From Bacillales bacterium UBA5455 (GTDB taxonomy: Bacteria > Bacillota_I > Bacilli_A > RFN20 > CAG-826), in contig DIQT01000015.1 in the NCBI GenBank assembly GCA_002427365.1, positions 77,222-141,221 on the forward strand: 64,000 nt of DNA, read 5' to 3'. The translations under genes were made by a program, and so were the position numbers. Below the pieces are notes generated by a model. It was not told the DNA's origin. It searched no databases and was given only the letters and a program-made list of their open reading frames with translations. Of the stretch, positions 2,694 to 58,451 are shown one piece after another (position 1 is the first letter of the stretch; every line of letters begins with the position of its first letter).

Positions 2694-2777
2694 AATAGGT
2701 AGTTAATTAGTATATTTTTAGTTTTTATATTTATTTAAACCGTTAACTTTGTTATGATAAAGACGAGGTATTTAACA

Positions 2778-31972: not shown

Positions 31973-32147
31973 AACACATTAAATATTTCTAAATAAGAAG
32001 AACAAGTAGTAATGAAGGAAAAGACTAAGTTAATTGTGGCTTAAATTACGCGTGTCAATGAAAAACATAGTCCTAGACTTAGAAATCATTTACTTGGATG
32101 TTAATCCACAATTGGTATGTGTTAACTAAATAACTACTAATTAATAA

Positions 32148-37628: not shown

Positions 37629-37708
37629 AACTTATAAACTACTAACTACTTACTAGAAATATACAAAGTAAGGTTTTAGACGGTATTTATTTGTTTTATT
37701 AGTGAGTT

Positions 37709-37975
37709 TTATAAAATTATTTTAAAAACCATCAAAAAGGTGTATAAGCCCGCAGCGATTAAGCTAAATAAGGCAAATTGATAATCCACCTTGCGATATG
37801 TTGGTGCGGATTGCCGTTTGTCAGTATAGACTTGATAATAGCCAAAAATAATCGGTATTAAACCAAAAAACGGATTTAAAAGCGAAATCCCTAACCCAAC
37901 AACGGTTAAAATTCGCGATTGATTTAATTTTCCAAAACTTGGTTTACTTAGATCAGTGTAAGCATTTTTCTTCAT
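37709..37975 (-). CDS. small 2-TM membrane protein
   Basis: The start at 37975 (MKKNAYTD) follows an AGGAGC RBS and a TATAAT. Two hydrophobic helices are present. The ORF-track start at 38014 is upstream of the RBS. Confidence 0.5.
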   Translation of the reverse strand: MKKNAYTDLSKPSFGKLNQSRILTVVGLGISLLNPFFGLIPIIFGYYQVYTDKRQSAPTYRKVDYQFALFSLIAAGLYTFLMVFKIIL

Positions 37976-38100
37976 ATTTTTGCTCCTACCTGTGATTATA
38001 ACGAAACAAACCATATAAATAAATAAAATTAATCGGAAAGATGAGTTTATTATCTTTTATTTATCGGTGTTTTTCATTATAATAGCAGTAGAGGAAAGTT

Positions 38101-39761: not shown

Positions 39762-40055
39762 ATGTTAACGAATCCACAAAAGAAATATTTAAAAGCGGAA
39801 GCTAATCACTTAAAACCGCTTTATCAAATTGGCAAAAATGAAATTAGTGATAATACTTTAGTTTTATTAGAAAATGGTTTACGGACCCAAGAATTAATTA
39901 AAGTATCTGTTTTAAAAACCGTTAGCATGGAACCAAAAGGTGTTGGCGAAGTGCTTGCAAGCCATTTAGAAGCCGAACTAGTCCAAGTCGTTGGCCGTAT
40001 TATTACGTTATACAAAGAAAATCCGAAGCAAAGGAAATATAAGTTGCCAAAATAA
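39762..40055 (+). CDS. yhbY: YhbY/CRS1-type RNA-binding ribosome assembly protein (YqeI)
   Basis: KAEANHLKPLYQIGKNEISDN...LIKVSVL matches the CRM domain. The start could be at 39741. Confidence 0.75.
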   Translation: MLTNPQKKYLKAEANHLKPLYQIGKNEISDNTLVLLENGLRTQELIKVSVLKTVSMEPKGVGEVLASHLEAELVQVVGRIITLYKENPKQRKYKLPK

Positions 40056-41167
40056 TGGAAAAAACAAAAACATTACTTTTCGGTGGTTCATTCGACCCGA
40101 TTCATGATGGTCATGTGCTAATGGCCAAAACGGCCGCAAAAGCACTTGACGCTAACCAAGTTGTCTTTATTCTTGCGCGACATCCTCGCTGGAAAACAAC
40201 AAGCGCAACGCCAGTTGATCGGGCAAAAATGCTTGAAGGTGTTATTATTTCGGATTTAAATTTTCAGATTTCGGATATTGAACTAAAAAGTGAAGATGAA
40301 ATAAATTATACATATGTGACCGTTGGTCGCTACTTAGCGCTTCATCCGAATGAAGAAGTTGCTTTTTTAATTGGCTCCGACCAAGCAAATCAATTTGATC
40401 AATGGTATGCGGCCGAAGCACTCGCAAAAATTTGTCAAATCGTTGTTTATGAACGACCAGATGATGAGCTTAATCTCGATCTTGTTAAACAATATAATAT
40501 GAAAGCCGTCCATGGCCCAAAAACAAGCGCTAGTTCGACGAATATTCGCCGATTACGTGATTGCCAAACACCATTAACGGTGCTTAGTTATATCGCCCGG
40601 GAAAATTTATATTATATGCCGGAACTTCATAAATATTTATCGCCAAAGCGCCTTGCTCATTCATTACGTGTTGCCCGTTTAGCGTATGAAATTGCTAAAG
40701 CCAATAACGTTGATTATGGACGTGTTTATGCGGCAGCTTTACTTCATGATATTGGTAAAGAAATGAATGAAGAAGAAGCGTTAGCGATCATGAAAGAACA
40801 TTTTCCAACCGAATTAGCGAATTTAAATGGAAATAGTGAACTTTATCATCAATTTGTCGGTGCGTATTTAGCAAAAACCCGCTTCAAAATTAATGATGAA
40901 GAGATTTTAGACGCAATTGCCTATCATAGTAGTGGTAAAGAAGAGATGAACTTAATTGGAAAAATCTTATATTCTGCGGATAAAATTGAACCAGGCCGGA
41001 AATTTGATAGTTCTGAACTCATCAAAGCGTGTATGACCAACTGGGAAGATGGATTTATCGAAGTTCTTAAAGCAAACCAAGAGTTTCTTGAAGAAATCGG
41101 TGTAAAAACAGAAAATAAATATAGCCAAGCGTGCTTTACATATTACTTAGGAAAGGAGGAGCGTTAA
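40055..41167 (+). CDS. nadD: Fusion of nicotinate-nucleotide adenylyltransferase NadD (N-terminal) and HD-domain phosphohydrolase YqeK (C-terminal)
   Basis: The N-terminus LFGGSFDPIHDGH (the (H/T)xGH nucleotidyltransferase motif) and SSTNIRR belong to NadD. The C-terminus LRVARLAYEIA...LLHDIGK (HD motif) belongs to YqeK. It is a single uninterrupted 370-aa ORF. Confidence 0.85.
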   Translation: MEKTKTLLFGGSFDPIHDGHVLMAKTAAKALDANQVVFILARHPRWKTTSATPVDRAKMLEGVIISDLNFQISDIELKSEDEINYTYVTVGRYLALHPNEEVAFLIGSDQANQFDQWYAAEALAKICQIVVYERPDDELNLDLVKQYNMKAVHGPKTSASSTNIRRLRDCQTPLTVLSYIARENLYYMPELHKYLSPKRLAHSLRVARLAYEIAKANNVDYGRVYAAALLHDIGKEMNEEEALAIMKEHFPTELANLNGNSELYHQFVGAYLAKTRFKINDEEILDAIAYHSSGKEEMNLIGKILYSADKIEPGRKFDSSELIKACMTNWEDGFIEVLKANQEFLEEIGVKTENKYSQACFTYYLGKEER

Positions 41168-41170
41168 TCA

Positions 41171-41503
41171 ATGGGAAGACGACCAAATTTAGTTAATAAA
41201 ATCGAACAAGCATTAGAAGACAAAAAAGCGACCGATGTATCAGTTGTCTATATGCGGAATAACACAAAAAAAGCGATTACTGACTATTACATCATCGCGA
41301 CCGCGAATAATGAGCGGTTACTAAATGCCCTTGCCGATGTCGCAGTTGAAACGATTATAAAAAATGGCGGCAACATTCATCATATCGAAGGGAAGAAAGC
41401 AAATAGCGAATGGGTCTTAGTCGATGCTTATAATATAATTGTTCATTTGTTTACACCACAAGCTCGAATCGATTATGATCTTGATGGCTTAGAAAAAAGA
41501 TAG
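41171..41503 (+). CDS. rsfS: Ribosomal silencing factor RsfS (Iojap, YqeL)
   Basis: 110 aa. DYYIIATANNERLLNALAD and the VHLF context are typical of RsfS. Synteny after nadD/yqeK supports the call. Confidence 0.85.
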   Translation: MGRRPNLVNKIEQALEDKKATDVSVVYMRNNTKKAITDYYIIATANNERLLNALADVAVETIIKNGGNIHHIEGKKANSEWVLVDAYNIIVHLFTPQARIDYDLDGLEKR

Positions 41504-41517
41504 TTTAGAAATTTTAA

Positions 41518-41548
41518 AACATCCAGTTAGTGAATTGGATGTTTTTTT
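41518..41548 (+). terminator. rho-independent terminator after rsfS
   Basis: AACATCCA-N9-TGGATGTT followed by a T7 run. Confidence 0.7.
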
Positions 41549-41684
41549 ATTACATACACATAAATTTAAGAGAACAATCGGAAACCGTTATAATTTTAAA
41601 TTTGTATTAACTTCGTATAATCTATATTATGTAAACTAAACTATATAAAAGGCGCATTAATAAAGGGTTTTAAACGATTGATTA

Positions 41685-41730
41685 TAAAAAAGTGGATAAG
41701 CAACCTAATTTAAGGTACGGACTTATCCAC
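41685..41730 (-). terminator. long-loop hairpin plus U-run, likely terminator of the MazF-like gene
   Basis: GTGGATAAG and CTTATCCAC form a perfect 9-bp inverted repeat separated by 21 nt, followed on the minus strand by TTTTTT. Confidence 0.45.
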
Positions 41731-41795
41731 AATTTCACTAACTTATTAACAACTAAATATATACTAATTAACCACTTTAACAGCTTAAACTACTA

Positions 41796-42458
41796 CTATT
41801 CGGAATAAATAAGCTTGCCATCAATTGTTGTTTGTTTAATCGCATTAAGGATTTTATCCATTTGTTCTTTCGTTAAAACAGCGACTGGTTCATGATCCGC
41901 AAACTCTCTTTTTTCCTTATCTTTTCTAATTAAGCCCCGGCGAAAAATCCGCAACTTATCAATTCCACGTTTTTGATTAAAGACCGCGATTGTTTTCACA
42001 TTCCCCATTAAGCCAGGGATTGGTCCAATTTCAACGTCGCTTGTTGGGTTGCTATTTGCCTTATGCATCGTTTTTAATGGAACGACTTCAACAATCTGAT
42101 TCGTTTCTAAGGATGGACGGACAACGACCGCGTAATGACGACCACGTAATTCACTACCGACGCCAATACCAAAATCGACTTCATAAACTTCACCCGGTAG
42201 TAAATCATACATTAATTGTCTCGTCATGTTACTTTTTACATAGGTGAGTAATTGCCGTAAGTCTTGGAAATATCTGTTAGCGGTTTCTAGTTCCGCAACA
42301 TAAATTTCCATTTTTTCATCATTTGTATAACCGTAGGGACGGTTTCCTTTGTCCGACATTCGGCGTTGTTGGCGTAATTTTTCTTCATCGCGATCGTCGT
42401 CATCATCATCATCAGCTGGTGGGGCTATTAAGCCTTCTTTGTTTAAAATACTTTTCAT
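41796..42458 (-). CDS. MazF/PemK-fold (CcdB/MazF superfamily) domain protein with an 85-aa acidic N-terminal extension
   Basis: Residues about 90-215 align to B. subtilis EndoA/MazF: PGEVYEVDFGIGVGSELRGRHYAVVVRPS matches [29 protein letters not shown], and LTKEQMDKILNAIK matches LDDEMMDKVDEALQ. The N-terminal 85 aa include a D7 run and KLRQQRR. The start at 42458 follows a GAGAAAGGAAA RBS. Confidence 0.55.
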   Translation of the reverse strand: MKSILNKEGLIAPPADDDDDDDRDEEKLRQQRRMSDKGNRPYGYTNDEKMEIYVAELETANRYFQDLRQLLTYVKSNMTRQLMYDLLPGEVYEVDFGIGVGSELRGRHYAVVVRPSLETNQIVEVVPLKTMHKANSNPTSDVEIGPIPGLMGNVKTIAVFNQKRGIDKLRIFRRGLIRKDKEKREFADHEPVAVLTKEQMDKILNAIKQTTIDGKLIYSE

Positions 42459-42832
42459 AATTATTTTCCTTTCTCCCATTTACGAAAATTTTGGTATGAC
42501 AAAAAAGTATAAACACTGATGATCTTTTTGATTAAGTTTATTTTGAATGGCTATTAGTTGTTGTAGCTAAAGTTAGATTTAATTCAAATTTGTTTTTTTG
42601 TTTAACGTAGATCAATACTCGGTTTAAATGTTTCTAATTTGTCCTCCTTGTTTTCCTAAACAGGTAGTATTTTATATATAAAACTTAACATGAAATGAAA
42701 CAAAAAGGTAGATGAAAAGTGATAAAAACGCAATTTTATCAACTTATTTTTAAAAAACACGATTTTTCGGAAATTGGTCTAATTTTTGGTGTACCTTAAT
42801 AGTTTAGGCTCTTTTAAAAAGGGTGAAAAAAG

Positions 42833-42859
42833 ACAAAAAAAAGAGCCAAATCATGGCTC
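42833..42859 (-). terminator. rho-independent terminator after deoB
   Basis: GAGCCA-aatca-TGGCTC followed on the minus strand by a T8 run. Confidence 0.7.
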
Positions 42860-42885
42860 TTCACTTAGCAATAAATTTTTAAAAA

Positions 42886-44091
42886 TTAGTCTTCAAGCAG
42901 TGGTTCAATAACTAAACCAATCATATTTTCCGCTTTTTCAAGGCCGAAATTTTCTAAGACAGTCGCGCCTAAGTCGGCGAAGGAAAACCGATCAGCGAGT
43001 TTGCGGCCATTTTTATAACTTGATGAATAGGCAACGAGTGGAACCATTTCTCTAGTATGGTCGGTTCCTTTAAATGTTGGATCATTACCATGGTCCGCAG
43101 TTACGATTACTAAATCATCTTCATTGAGTTCTTCGATTAATTGACCAAGCCGTAGGTCAAAGGCTTCAAGCGCTTGACCATAACCAATTGGATTCCGGCG
43201 ATGACCGTATTCCGAGTCAAATTCGACTAAGTTAGTAAAAACAAGTCCTTCAAAGTCACGATTTTTCGCAATTTCAATAACCTTATCCATGCCATCTTCA
43301 TTAGAAACGATTTTTTGGCTTTCAACAATCCCAACACCATTATAAATATCTTTGATTTTACCAATGGCGGAAACCATGTAGCCATTGTCTTTTAGGATAT
43401 CTAAGGCCGTTGTGCCACTAGGTGATAAGGCCCAGTCATGCCGATTTGGTGTCCGTTTAAAGTTTGCGGGTGTATCACCAACAAAGGGCCGAGCAATAAC
43501 ACGACCAACTCGCCATTCAGGTTTCATACAAATATCGCGGGCGGTTTCACAAACTTTATATAAGTTTTCTAAGCCAATGACATTTTCATTCGCACATACT
43601 TGTAAAACGCTATCCGCTGATGTATACACGATAATCGAGTTATCGCGCATTGATTCTTCGCCTAATTTGGCCATAATTTCGGTTCCACTTGCGGCGATGT
43701 TACCAATTACTTTATAACCTGTTCTTTTTTCGAGTTCTTCAAGTAATTCTTTTGGAAAGCCGGTATCCGTAAATGTTTGGAATGGTTCGGTTGTTAATAA
43801 ACCCATAATTTCCCAGTGGCCGGTCATCGTATCTTTGCCAAAGCTTGCTTCATGCATTCTTGCAACGTAACTATTAGGGTGCACCTTTACCGCTGGTGTC
43901 CCAACGATATTTGTTAATTGGCCGATTCCTAACGAACCTAAAACGGGTAATTTTAGACCTTCGGGCATCGATAATGAAATATGCTCAACGGTTGAGGCTC
44001 CTTCATCACCAAATTCCGCGGCATCGGGCATCGCGCCGATTCCAACGGAGTCAATTACAATTACAAAGACGCGTTTAAATTGTTTTTTCAT
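42886..44091 (-). CDS. deoB: Phosphopentomutase DeoB
   Basis: VFVIVIDSVGIG and the alkaline-phosphatase-like metal-binding core (DHGND, TADHG). 401 aa. Confidence 0.9.
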   Translation of the reverse strand: MKKQFKRVFVIVIDSVGIGAMPDAAEFGDEGASTVEHISLSMPEGLKLPVLGSLGIGQLTNIVGTPAVKVHPNSYVARMHEASFGKDTMTGHWEIMGLLTTEPFQTFTDTGFPKELLEELEKRTGYKVIGNIAASGTEIMAKLGEESMRDNSIIVYTSADSVLQVCANENVIGLENLYKVCETARDICMKPEWRVGRVIARPFVGDTPANFKRTPNRHDWALSPSGTTALDILKDNGYMVSAIGKIKDIYNGVGIVESQKIVSNEDGMDKVIEIAKNRDFEGLVFTNLVEFDSEYGHRRNPIGYGQALEAFDLRLGQLIEELNEDDLVIVTADHGNDPTFKGTDHTREMVPLVAYSSSYKNGRKLADRFSFADLGATVLENFGLEKAENMIGLVIEPLLED

Positions 44092-44141: not shown

Positions 44142-45023
44142 TTATTTTCCTTTTGTATACAAATCATAAACACTTAAAATTCGTTTTGAAGAAACATGCG
44201 TGTAAATTTGCGTTGTTGCGATGCTTGCGTGGCCTAATAAAGCTTGGACAACTCGTAACTGCGCGCCATGTTCTAAGAGGTGGGTAGCGAATGAGTGCCG
44301 GAGTGTATGCGGGGTAACTTGCTTATCAATGCCCGCTCGAAGCGCATATTGCTTAACAATTCGATGAAAGTATTGCCGTGACATCGGTTTTCCGTGTTTT
44401 GTTAAGAAAATATATGGTGATTTCGCTCCAATATTTTTAATACGGACATCGCTTACATAGTCATTTAAATAGCCAAGCGCAAATTCCCCAATCGGAATGA
44501 TCCGGTCTTTATTGCCTTTACCACGAATTTTGACGATTTCTTGGTTTAAATTAACTTGGCTTTTTTCTAAATTAACGAGTTCACTAACCCGTAACCCACA
44601 CGCATACATAACTTCAAGCATTGCCTTATCGCGTTTTTCATCGTCTTTACTTAAATCAGGCGCTTCTAGTAACGCTTCAACTTCCTCTTCAGTAAGAACA
44701 CTTGGAAGTGTACGAGCGGGTTTAGGAATTTCAATATTTGGTAATTCATCAAAAAAGAGCCCTTCATTAATTAAAAACATGTAGTAGCGGCGTAATGACG
44801 AGTAGCGCCGGACGATTGTGGCCGCCGAATAGCCTTCTTGGGCTTGTAAAAGAACGAAATCGCTTAATTGCACAACAACATACTCATCCGTTGTTTCTAG
44901 CGGAAAATACGTGTGAAATAAGCCAAGATCTTCAAAGTAACTTTCGATTGTCGAAGATGCTAACCCTTTTTCACTAAAAAGATACCGGCGGTATTTACTT
45001 AAGACATCACTTACTAACATCAT
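44142..45023 (-). CDS. xerD: Tyrosine site-specific recombinase XerD/XerC family
   Basis: The R..HxxR..Y catalytic signature (ACGLRVSEL, LRHSFATHLL, GHASIATTQIYTHV) is present. It is adjacent to deoB, as for B. subtilis ripX. Confidence 0.8.
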   Translation of the reverse strand: MMLVSDVLSKYRRYLFSEKGLASSTIESYFEDLGLFHTYFPLETTDEYVVVQLSDFVLLQAQEGYSAATIVRRYSSLRRYYMFLINEGLFFDELPNIEIPKPARTLPSVLTEEEVEALLEAPDLSKDDEKRDKAMLEVMYACGLRVSELVNLEKSQVNLNQEIVKIRGKGNKDRIIPIGEFALGYLNDYVSDVRIKNIGAKSPYIFLTKHGKPMSRQYFHRIVKQYALRAGIDKQVTPHTLRHSFATHLLEHGAQLRVVQALLGHASIATTQIYTHVSSKRILSVYDLYTKGK

Positions 45024-49841: not shown

Positions 49842-49874
49842 ATTCTAATTCTCTACTAAATAATTACTAAAAAA

Positions 49875-58335: not shown

Positions 58336-58451
58336 TATATTGTAGTCTTTATTGACATTAAAATCAATTAAGAGGCCTATTTCCATCGGAATAAATTTAG
58401 TAAAACTAGCAATACAACTAAATATATAATAAATAACTACTATAAAACTAC

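Follow-up and report, generated by a model that had tools for sequence, protein, structure and literature searches.

An extended, solitary PemK/MazF-like gene beside dif at the replication terminus of uncultured Bacilli

A single minus-strand gene between rsfS and deoB

The stretch analysed here, called the window, comprises 64,000 nucleotides (nt) of contig DIQT01000015.1 from Bacillales bacterium UBA5455 (assembly GCA_002427365.1, positions 77,222 to 141,221 of the forward strand). Between rsfS (41171-41503, plus strand) and deoB (42886-44091, minus strand), the list of open reading frames (ORFs) holds a single ORF, on the minus strand, which encodes an extended PemK/MazF-like protein. This PemK-like gene is a fast-evolving, selected, single-copy and vertically inherited gene, not an island, and it lies beside a dif site at the replication terminus. 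The first-pass annotation, which was made from the sequence alone, had described a solitary gene with unusually long intergenic spacers, and these indeed measure 292 nt downstream (41504-41795) and 427 nt upstream (42459-42885). The gene, the parts of its protein and dif are located as follows (strand relative to the window; pLDDT, predicted local distance difference test of the structure model).

41796..42458, minus: coding sequence of the extended PemK/MazF-like protein, 220 amino acids (aa), stop codon TAG at 41796-41798 (ORF list, sequence, orthologues)
42467..42473, minus: ribosome-binding site (RBS) with AAAGGA core (GAAAGGA), 8-9 nt before the ATG at 42458 (from sequence)
42327..42458, minus: N-terminal tail, residues 1-44, pLDDT 51-65, disordered or of low confidence, not conserved
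42222..42323, minus: conserved N-terminal alpha-helix, residues 46-79, pLDDT 77-94 in 10-residue blocks, just before the barrel
41832..42197, minus: PemK/MazF barrel domain, residues 88-209, with the C-terminal helix 197-212 (Pfam, structure model)
42135..42137, minus: codon of His108, at the position of the catalytic Arg (R25 in Bacillus subtilis MazF, R29 in Escherichia coli MazF; profile alignment with hhalign)
41610..41637, plus: dif site ACTTCGTATAA-TCTATA-TTATGTAAACT, unique in the window, XerC-type arm toward rsfS and XerD-type arm toward the PemK-like gene

The open frame extends over 41796-42479 and would encode 227 aa from its first ATG. Because GAAAGGA is well spaced before the ATG at 42458 and no RBS precedes the first ATG, the product was taken as the 220-aa protein beginning MKSILNK. 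A database protein with 99% identity is also 220 aa long, and relatives have a strong RBS at the equivalent start codon.

The dif site in the downstream spacer is identical to B. subtilis dif at 25 of 28 positions (three differences) and has the 28-bp architecture of two 11-bp arms with partial dyad symmetry around a 6-bp centre. The B. subtilis dif string occurs in Kono et al. 2011 (PMC3025954). One copy is present in the window, with none expected by chance, and when the downstream spacer was aligned with that of a relative whose protein is 62% identical, ACTTCGTATAATCTATATTATGTAAACT (41610-41637) was one of the perfectly conserved blocks. The GC skew ranges from +0.05 to +0.16 up to 40 kb and from -0.03 to -0.08 beyond 42 kb, so that its sign changes within 40-44 kb. 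Genes to the left of 41.6 kb lie on the plus strand, with three exceptions among 32, and all genes to the right lie on the minus strand. The combination of dif with the flips of GC skew and gene orientation therefore identifies the locus as the replication terminus, and it is there that the downstream spacer lies.

Fold, active site and N-terminal extension of the protein

The Pfam family PF02452 (PemK_toxin) covers residues 88-209 of the protein with 36.2 bits, the gathering threshold being 23.1. No NCBIfam family scored above its cut-off, and PDB sequence searches with the protein alone and with a four-sequence profile returned chance matches only. A family profile aligned to B. subtilis MazF in hhalign with a probability of 97.7%, and it was also aligned to E. 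coli MazF. An AlphaFold2 model based on a 60-sequence alignment reached a pLDDT of 83.7 and a predicted template modelling score of 0.74, superseding an unusable model from only four sequences (pLDDT 49.6). Its barrel strands, between residues 90 and 167, and its C-terminal helix at 197-212 are both very confident and form the SH3-like barrel with C-terminal helix of the MazF/Kid/CcdB fold. The MazF/PemK fold that the first-pass annotation had recognised is thus confirmed.

The loops that bind and cleave the substrate in MazF (G-S-E and N-Q-x-R-x-I-D-K-x-R) are the best conserved stretches of the protein. In a 51-sequence alignment E103, H108, S116, P127 and K168 are invariant and G89, G145, A158, Q162, D167, R170 and L195 nearly so, with similar results in other alignments. 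N161-Q162, D167-K168 and R170 are all invariant or nearly so, and the NQxRxIDKxR motif is kept. Of the features expected in a MazF-type endoribonuclease, the G-S-E loop has its Glu, and the strand that binds the substrate (EQIRTIDK) is present as well. The Glu, E103, aligns with E24 of E. coli MazF in hhalign and does not vary in the family alignments. The catalytic Arg of MazF-type endoribonucleases, on the other hand, is absent. His108 occupies the aligned position family-wide, without variation among the 51 sequences and with at least 90% conservation among the 60, and Arg107, directly before it, is not conserved in the wider family. K129 and T130 align with T48 and A49 of B. subtilis MazF, T48 being the catalytic or transition-state Thr that follows a conserved Pro, and T52 its E. 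coli equivalent. The K129 position is Lys, Thr or His in relatives, and the T130 position is Ser or Thr in nearly all of them.

MazF/EndoA (B. subtilis YdcE, Staphylococcus aureus MazF) and Kid/PemK have in common with the present protein strand 1 with G-[DE]-[IV]-[YF], the G-S-E loop, P-L-x-[TS] and [NE]-Q-x-R-x-I-D-K-x-R. In contrast to them, the present protein is extended at its N-terminus by about 85 aa, which form the tail and the helix, and has a poorly conserved stretch of low confidence before the last helix (172-196) and His in place of the catalytic Arg. It also differs in that no mazE, pemI or kis gene is adjacent and in that its gene passes down vertically at one constant place in the terminus and is neither patchy nor mobile.

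Residues 1-87 matched nothing in Pfam, NCBIfam or the PDB, and nothing in MazE; the family profile showed no similarity to B. subtilis and E. coli MazE in hhalign (probability below 1%). The D7 run (42393-42413) and the KLRQQRR patch that the first-pass annotation had pointed out are both present in the tail, but as a hint of a fused antitoxin they do not hold up, being species-specific and absent already in the orthologue with 62% identity. The helix at 46-79 is the only part of the extension that can be aligned family-wide. It is conserved in 60 sequences and can be aligned between chromosomal, plasmid and phage relatives. With this helix conserved, the extension is a real part of the protein, as had been proposed.

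Inheritance, mobile relatives and flanking DNA

Homologues were identified in a word-indexed search, which found three, and in an exhaustive HMMER search, which found 294 cluster representatives, 67 of them below 1e-10 and most of them 150-230 aa long with an N-terminal extension. The closest orthologues are 99%, 62% and 42% identical, and homologues carry the NCBI label 'type II toxin-antitoxin system PemK/MazF family toxin'. The lineage consists of uncultured low-GC Bacilli, whose metagenome-assembled genomes are labelled Erysipelotrichaceae, Bacilli, 'Tenericutes' or 'Staphylococcaceae'. Related loci are cited below by number (L001 and so on) where they have to be told apart.

The 62% orthologue also lies between deoB and rsfS. 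By tblastn, the order dinB-xerD-deoB-gene-(rsfS)-nadD/yqeK-yhbY-yqeH was found in 20 species-level genome loci, save two distant matches, and it is the same around family members that are only 22-30% identical. With metagenomes included, dinB-xerD-deoB-gene-dif-(rsfS)-nadD/yqeK is conserved in more than 50 loci (20 genome, about 30 metagenome) across which the protein diverges down to 16-30% identity. The synteny breakpoint suggested in the first-pass annotation is contradicted by this order, and the locus is no presence-absence island. NCBIfam identified the neighbours as phosphopentomutase, a XerD-type tyrosine recombinase, DNA polymerase IV, RsfS and a NadD-YqeK fusion. The recombinase gene (44142-45023), two genes upstream of the PemK-like gene, scored 325.3 bits with XerD (TIGR02225, cut-off 329.6) and 309.7 bits with NF001399 (cut-off 279), that is, just under the XerD cut-off and above that of the tyrosine recombinase subfamily.

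Some variation was seen around this core. NadD and YqeK are one fused protein of 370 aa in the window (40055-41167) and in all related loci. An rsfS gene between dif and nadD/yqeK was found only in the window and its close relatives (L001-L005); most related genomes (L006-L021, L024-L028) have the order gene-dif-nadD/yqeK with no space for rsfS. In L005 (4029-5803) and L039 (1719-3417), genes for an ABC-transporter substrate-binding lipoprotein and permease are inserted between deoB and the PemK-like gene.

Between unsaturated pairs of relatives, the ratio of nonsynonymous to synonymous substitution rates (dN/dS) is 0.05-0.14. Over 31 loci the median pairwise identity is 29% for the PemK-like protein and 67% for DeoB, and the two sets of identities correlate (Spearman 0.40, pairs not being independent). 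No antitoxin-sized ORF was found upstream or downstream, and in neither window spacer does an ORF of 30 aa or more have any support. The first-pass annotation had seen no MazE-like ORF upstream; this stands and extends to the other side. The spacer from deoB to the gene, counted with stop and start codons, is 84-164 nt in 14 relatives, 255 nt in L001 and 1925 nt in L005. As the 84-164 nt include the deoB terminator, there is no room for an antitoxin gene upstream in those relatives. The two hallmarks of a type II toxin-antitoxin (TA) module, an adjacent co-transcribed antitoxin and a patchy, horizontally mobile distribution, are therefore both missing. The PADLOC defence models did not match the protein.

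The PemK-like gene is the last gene of its replichore. In 52 loci of the genome and metagenome scans, which include near-duplicate contigs and of which about 38 are non-redundant, its stop codon is followed by dif at a distance of 121-164 nt and in constant orientation. The arms are conserved across the 52 loci and the 6-bp centre is variable. Exceptions are L038 and L039, which have an inserted methyltransferase gene and an inverted dif at a distance of 1.46 kb, contigs that are too short, L053 (no dif found), and non-syntenic distant matches. The methyltransferase of L039 is rsmB/NOL1-like. Upstream of the gene, L005 and L039 have gained the ABC transporter and the window about 300 nt. Beyond dif, rsfS is present or absent and small ORFs are inserted in L018, L019 and L021, but insertions between the gene and dif are almost never seen.

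At the XerC-type arm of dif, extra DNA abuts the site in L018 (6627-8400), L019 (1938-2560) and L021 (6642-8400). It opens with a shared 'ttgcttgacaa...aaaggggg', and the small ORFs of L021 have no Pfam match. This DNA may be a Xer-dependent integrated element (IMEX, integrative mobile element exploiting Xer), and the three insertions mark dif as an integration site in this lineage. No second dif or pseudo-dif was found upstream of the PemK-like gene, each locus having one site at up to 8 mismatches, and a half-site search of the upstream spacer gave weak matches only (2-3 mismatches). An IMEX or dif module bounded by two sites was rejected because of the single dif per locus.

Relatives with the extension and the His variant were found by tblastn on plasmids of cultured Bacillaceae (L063-L065 and L066-L068 are among the mobile-subfamily loci). 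The relative on B. subtilis pSX01705-2 (WP_157694098.1) is 199 aa long and lies 89 nt after rep; that on Sutcliffiella horikoshii pBH-BAT-15 has 180 aa, and that on an Anoxybacillus plasmid has 213 aa and follows a small helix-turn-helix gene. None of the plasmid relatives is directly paired with an annotated antitoxin in the PLSDB gene tables, which are incomplete. A 152-aa relative is part of a phage replication module with the order primase-PolA-PemK-like-unknown-YqaJ (exonuclease) in L022 (1042-8071), with further relatives in IMG/VR; BFVD holds several extended phage 'PemK-like' proteins, and PHROG 1412, labelled 'antitoxin mazE-like', matches at 5.5e-12. A tblastn search of 50,697 phage genomes gave no match and an IMG/VR scan with the family alignment no confirmed relative, the phage relatives being reached only via the Clostridia-type copy L022. 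Near the plasmid and phage copies, no dif, DnaA-box or TAGTAG motifs were found. The phage and plasmid 'PemK-like' proteins (PHROG 1412, Brochothrix phage A9 Gp171, WP_157694098.1) belong to the same class of 150-266 aa with a conserved aromatic residue in the N-terminal helix and His for Arg, and are solitary as well, but they reside on mobile elements without dif nearby, whereas the present clade is chromosomal, syntenic and dif-linked. As judged by alignment, a wider PemK subfamily is shown that combines the N-terminal helix, the invariant Glu (E24) and His for Arg and that is solitary on plasmids and in the phage module too.

The two spacers contain the following features.

41516..41545, plus: intrinsic terminator of rsfS, closing the yqeG-rsfS operon (terminator scan)
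41684..41731, minus: DnaA-box-like inverted 9-mers, TTATCCACA at 41723-41731 (plus) and TTATCCACT at 41691-41699 (minus), hairpin with T-run
41750..41798, minus: TAG-TAG-TAG at the stop codon and, behind it, TTAGTATATAT/TTAGTTGTTAA repeats of 11-nt period; one instance of a gene-end motif that recurs genome-wide
42459..42839, minus: lineage-specific upstream spacer, which must hold the promoter and includes the hairpin 42644-42662 and the orphan AAGGAGGA
42840..42862, minus: intrinsic terminator of deoB (terminator scan; equivalent hairpins follow deoB in relatives)

The upstream spacer of the window is far longer than at any other locus except L005 with its gene insertion. It could not be aligned with that of L001, the 62% relative, and no conserved element was found in this comparison. 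Rfam returned nothing relevant for 41000-43400 (E up to 1) or for the whole window (gathering score), and the fold of the upstream 380 nt as RNA is no better than that of shuffles (z = +0.77). The hairpin and the orphan AAGGAGGA without a start codon, to which the first-pass annotation had drawn attention, do exist, but they are not conserved and find no support from folding or Rfam. On these comparisons, the upstream spacer is a species-specific expansion without a conserved element. The description of both flanks as non-coding AT-rich DNA falls short for the downstream spacer, which is not empty and contains dif, the rsfS terminator and the DnaA-box-like pair. The TTATCCACA copy of this pair is perfect and its inverted copy at 41691-41699 matches at 8/9 positions; the stem sequence is kept in L001 and the loop differs. 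With its T-run, the pair is probably the terminator of the PemK-like gene.

DnaA-box-like 9-mers are unremarkable in the window alone (3, with 1.6 expected). Across 38 non-redundant loci, however, TT[AT]TCCACA occurs 58 times within 150 bp of dif, or 5.1 per kb, compared with 12 copies in the remaining 287 kb (0.04 per kb). This is an enrichment of about 120-fold near dif, with a strand bias of 54:4. The motif reads TGTGGA[AT]AA on the gene strand. In the typical layout, a single copy precedes dif by about 95 nt and/or two to three tandem copies follow from about 21 nt after it, plus an inverted copy. Such putative clusters, recognised by their 9-mers, flank dif in nearly every related locus (L001-L059), and in the literature searched no DnaA-box cluster was described at dif. 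The motif was also considered as a polar motif of the type of FtsK-orienting polar sequences (KOPS) or architecture-imparting sequences (AIMS); this was rejected since it is rare away from dif and has one orientation on both sides.

Interpretation and alternatives

The reading that we favour, tentatively and at somewhat less than even probability, is that of a single-gene, vertically inherited MazF-type RNase under cis control. The protein would be a sequence-specific endoribonuclease in which His108 does the job of the MazF Arg. That it is still an RNase is suggested because its most conserved features are the RNA-binding loops and the Glu equivalent to E24. No partner gene stands beside it on chromosome, plasmid or phage, which suggests that its activity would be held down not by a MazE-type antitoxin but from inside the one polypeptide chain, by the conserved helix alone or together with the tail. 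The gene may descend from a plasmid or a Xer-integrating element captured at dif and then retained by selection; this is suggested by the relatives found on plasmids and in phages and by the other insertions that lie directly against dif in the lineage. History thus most simply explains the proximity to dif, and the terminus, with dif, terminators and DnaA-box-like sites downstream, explains the long AT-rich spacers. Among the three explanations offered in the first-pass annotation, a domesticated RNase fits best, given vertical inheritance, fixed position and purifying selection, whereas an auto-inhibited or a fused toxin is possible. That annotation had held that universal orthologues of the same position and architecture, with a defined non-toxin function, would speak against it. 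The orthologues are indeed universal and keep both position and architecture, but NCBI calls them 'PemK/MazF family toxin' and gives no defined non-toxin function.

Several points weigh against the favoured reading. The RNase activity of this protein is a prediction from its conserved loops. With the catalytic Arg missing it could be catalytically dead, and its second catalytic residue, at the Thr48/Thr52 position, is ambiguous. A contact of helix 46-79 with the RNA groove is likewise a prediction. The helix does not resemble MazE, and a role in enlarging the dimer interface or in binding a different molecule is just as possible. The one dif-like site per locus leaves no direct trace of an integration event. 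Lastly, the tight, conserved spacing between gene and dif, together with the DnaA-box-like sites around dif, might mean a terminus-specific role and not an accident of history.

Known single-gene systems offer partial parallels. Myxococcus xanthus MazF-mx is solitary and is neutralised in trans by MrpC. Like the present protein it is a MazF homologue that is encoded on the chromosome, has no cognate mazE and serves the physiology of its host, but it has standard length and canonical catalytic residues, and the present solitary architecture also occurs on plasmids and phages. E. coli EzeT and CapRel are single-chain toxin-antitoxin fusions. They resemble the present protein in that one polypeptide joins a toxin domain to a region proposed to restrain it in cis, without a separate antitoxin gene. 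They belong, however, to other toxin families (zeta kinase, RelA/SpoT-like), and in the present case cis-inhibition is postulated for an extension without antitoxin-like fold or sequence.

The best surviving alternative, though an unlikely one, is a conventional MazF-type toxin whose antitoxin either comes from a distant gene of the same genome or is an RNA that has escaped recognition. It agrees with the assignment by Pfam and NCBI to the PemK/MazF toxin family, with the lack of an adjacent partner gene and with the general precedent of solitary mazF with an antitoxin acting in trans. However, the plasmid and phage copies are solitary too, and a trans partner would not travel along with them. 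Deep vertical conservation at one site with a dN/dS of 0.05-0.14 is also unlike typical chromosomal TA loci, and the flanks yielded neither a conserved small ORF nor a structured RNA.

It is also unlikely that the protein is a terminus-specific nucleic-acid-binding factor derived from a toxin fold and no longer a toxin, working with dif, XerD and the TGTGGA[AT]AA sites. It could then be a replication-fork barrier, an accessory of Xer recombination or a protector of dif from read-through, encoded beside its site like rtp (TerI) and tus (TerB). In its favour, the dif spacing of 121-164 nt is kept in 52 loci despite 16-30% protein identity, insertions lie beyond dif or upstream of the gene and almost never between them, and xerD is two genes upstream. 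The DnaA-box-like sites with their enrichment of about 120-fold within 150 bp of dif in one orientation (54:4), the loss of the catalytic Arg, and the position of relatives beside plasmid rep and inside a phage replication module point the same way. On the other hand, synteny extends over the whole neighbourhood, so that the gene is no more firmly associated with dif than deoB and xerD are. L038 and L039 keep the gene with the methyltransferase inserted and dif 1.46 kb off and inverted, the surroundings of the plasmid and phage copies lack dif, DnaA-box and TAGTAG motifs, and conservation falls on the residues that form the RNA-binding loops of MazF. No MazF-family protein is known to bind double-stranded DNA.

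An extension of this idea, in which the PemK-like protein, dif and the flanking DnaA-box-like sites would form one functional terminus module, is very unlikely; the protein might then block replication forks, assist or regulate XerD/dif recombination, or couple termination to DnaA. Modules of gene and site at termini are known in rtp-TerI and tus-TerB, in which the protein acts on the adjacent site. The xerS-difSL module of streptococci is another (PMC5357621). All three resemble the present arrangement in placing a small lineage-specific gene beside a terminus cis-element, but their proteins act on that element, whereas the present one has an RNase fold and a possible link to dif. Toxin-family genes at Xer recombination sites also occur in the dif modules of Acinetobacter and in IMEX elements carrying TA genes (PMC6449649, PMC12907356). 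Those elements, in contrast, have two pdif/dif sites, are mobile and patchy, and carry toxin plus antitoxin; the present locus has a single dif, lacks an antitoxin and is deeply conserved by vertical descent.

Hardly credible, and largely refuted, is a mis-called start or dispensable leader before a standard MazF of about 130 aa, or a mobile-element relic in decay: conservation and model confidence are low over residues 1-44 and internal Met codons are available (M34, M50, M78, M83), but helix 46-79 is conserved in 60 sequences at pLDDT 77-94, the frames of orthologues are open over 173-230 aa with a strong RBS at their first start codon, and a dN/dS of 0.05-0.14 excludes decay.

The fold and family of the protein were known already, and the terminus and dif are ordinary; what is new is a deeply conserved core gene that stands alone next to dif and encodes an extended MazF-like protein of the His variant, and also the DnaA-box-like cluster flanking dif. 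In the literature searched, on dif with TA systems, on DnaA boxes with dif and on solitary MazF, this arrangement was not described. MazF-family proteins are usually taken for toxins of mobile two-gene modules, and this subfamily breaks each of these expectations. The annotation 'type II toxin-antitoxin system toxin' is probably misleading for the clade. If the favoured reading of a self-regulated RNase is true, it provides a compact one-gene alternative to TA pairs and a case of toxin domestication. If the link of the protein to dif and the DnaA-box-like cluster is functional, it points to a new terminus mechanism in bacteria without Tus and RTP, and a true terminus module would be a new kind of terminus system that gives the MazF/CcdB fold its first role outside toxicity, in chromosome maintenance.

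The repeats at the end of the PemK-like gene belong to a TTAGTAG(TT) tandem motif with an 11-nt period that stands at or after the stop codons of several genes, usually before a terminator, and whose orientation follows the gene and not the replichore. Further sites in the window are at 37640-37655 (minus), 49854-49869 (minus), about 32120-32147 (minus), about 58420-58451 (minus) and about 2694-2730 (plus). The motif is lineage-wide, with many sites in L001-L059, and stands once directly before the dxs start codon. A gene-specific Ter-like or type III antitoxin-like element was rejected, as the same motif follows the stops of other genes; candidate roles are an RNA-level 3'-end signal or a direct-repeat site for a regulator. 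The motif followed by a terminator also forms the 3' end of a small ORF on the opposite strand upstream of yqeG (37656-38000, minus), for which no Pfam match was recorded. With lengths of 88-116 aa, it keeps its position in relatives, including L001 (12562-12912) and L003 (12483-12749).

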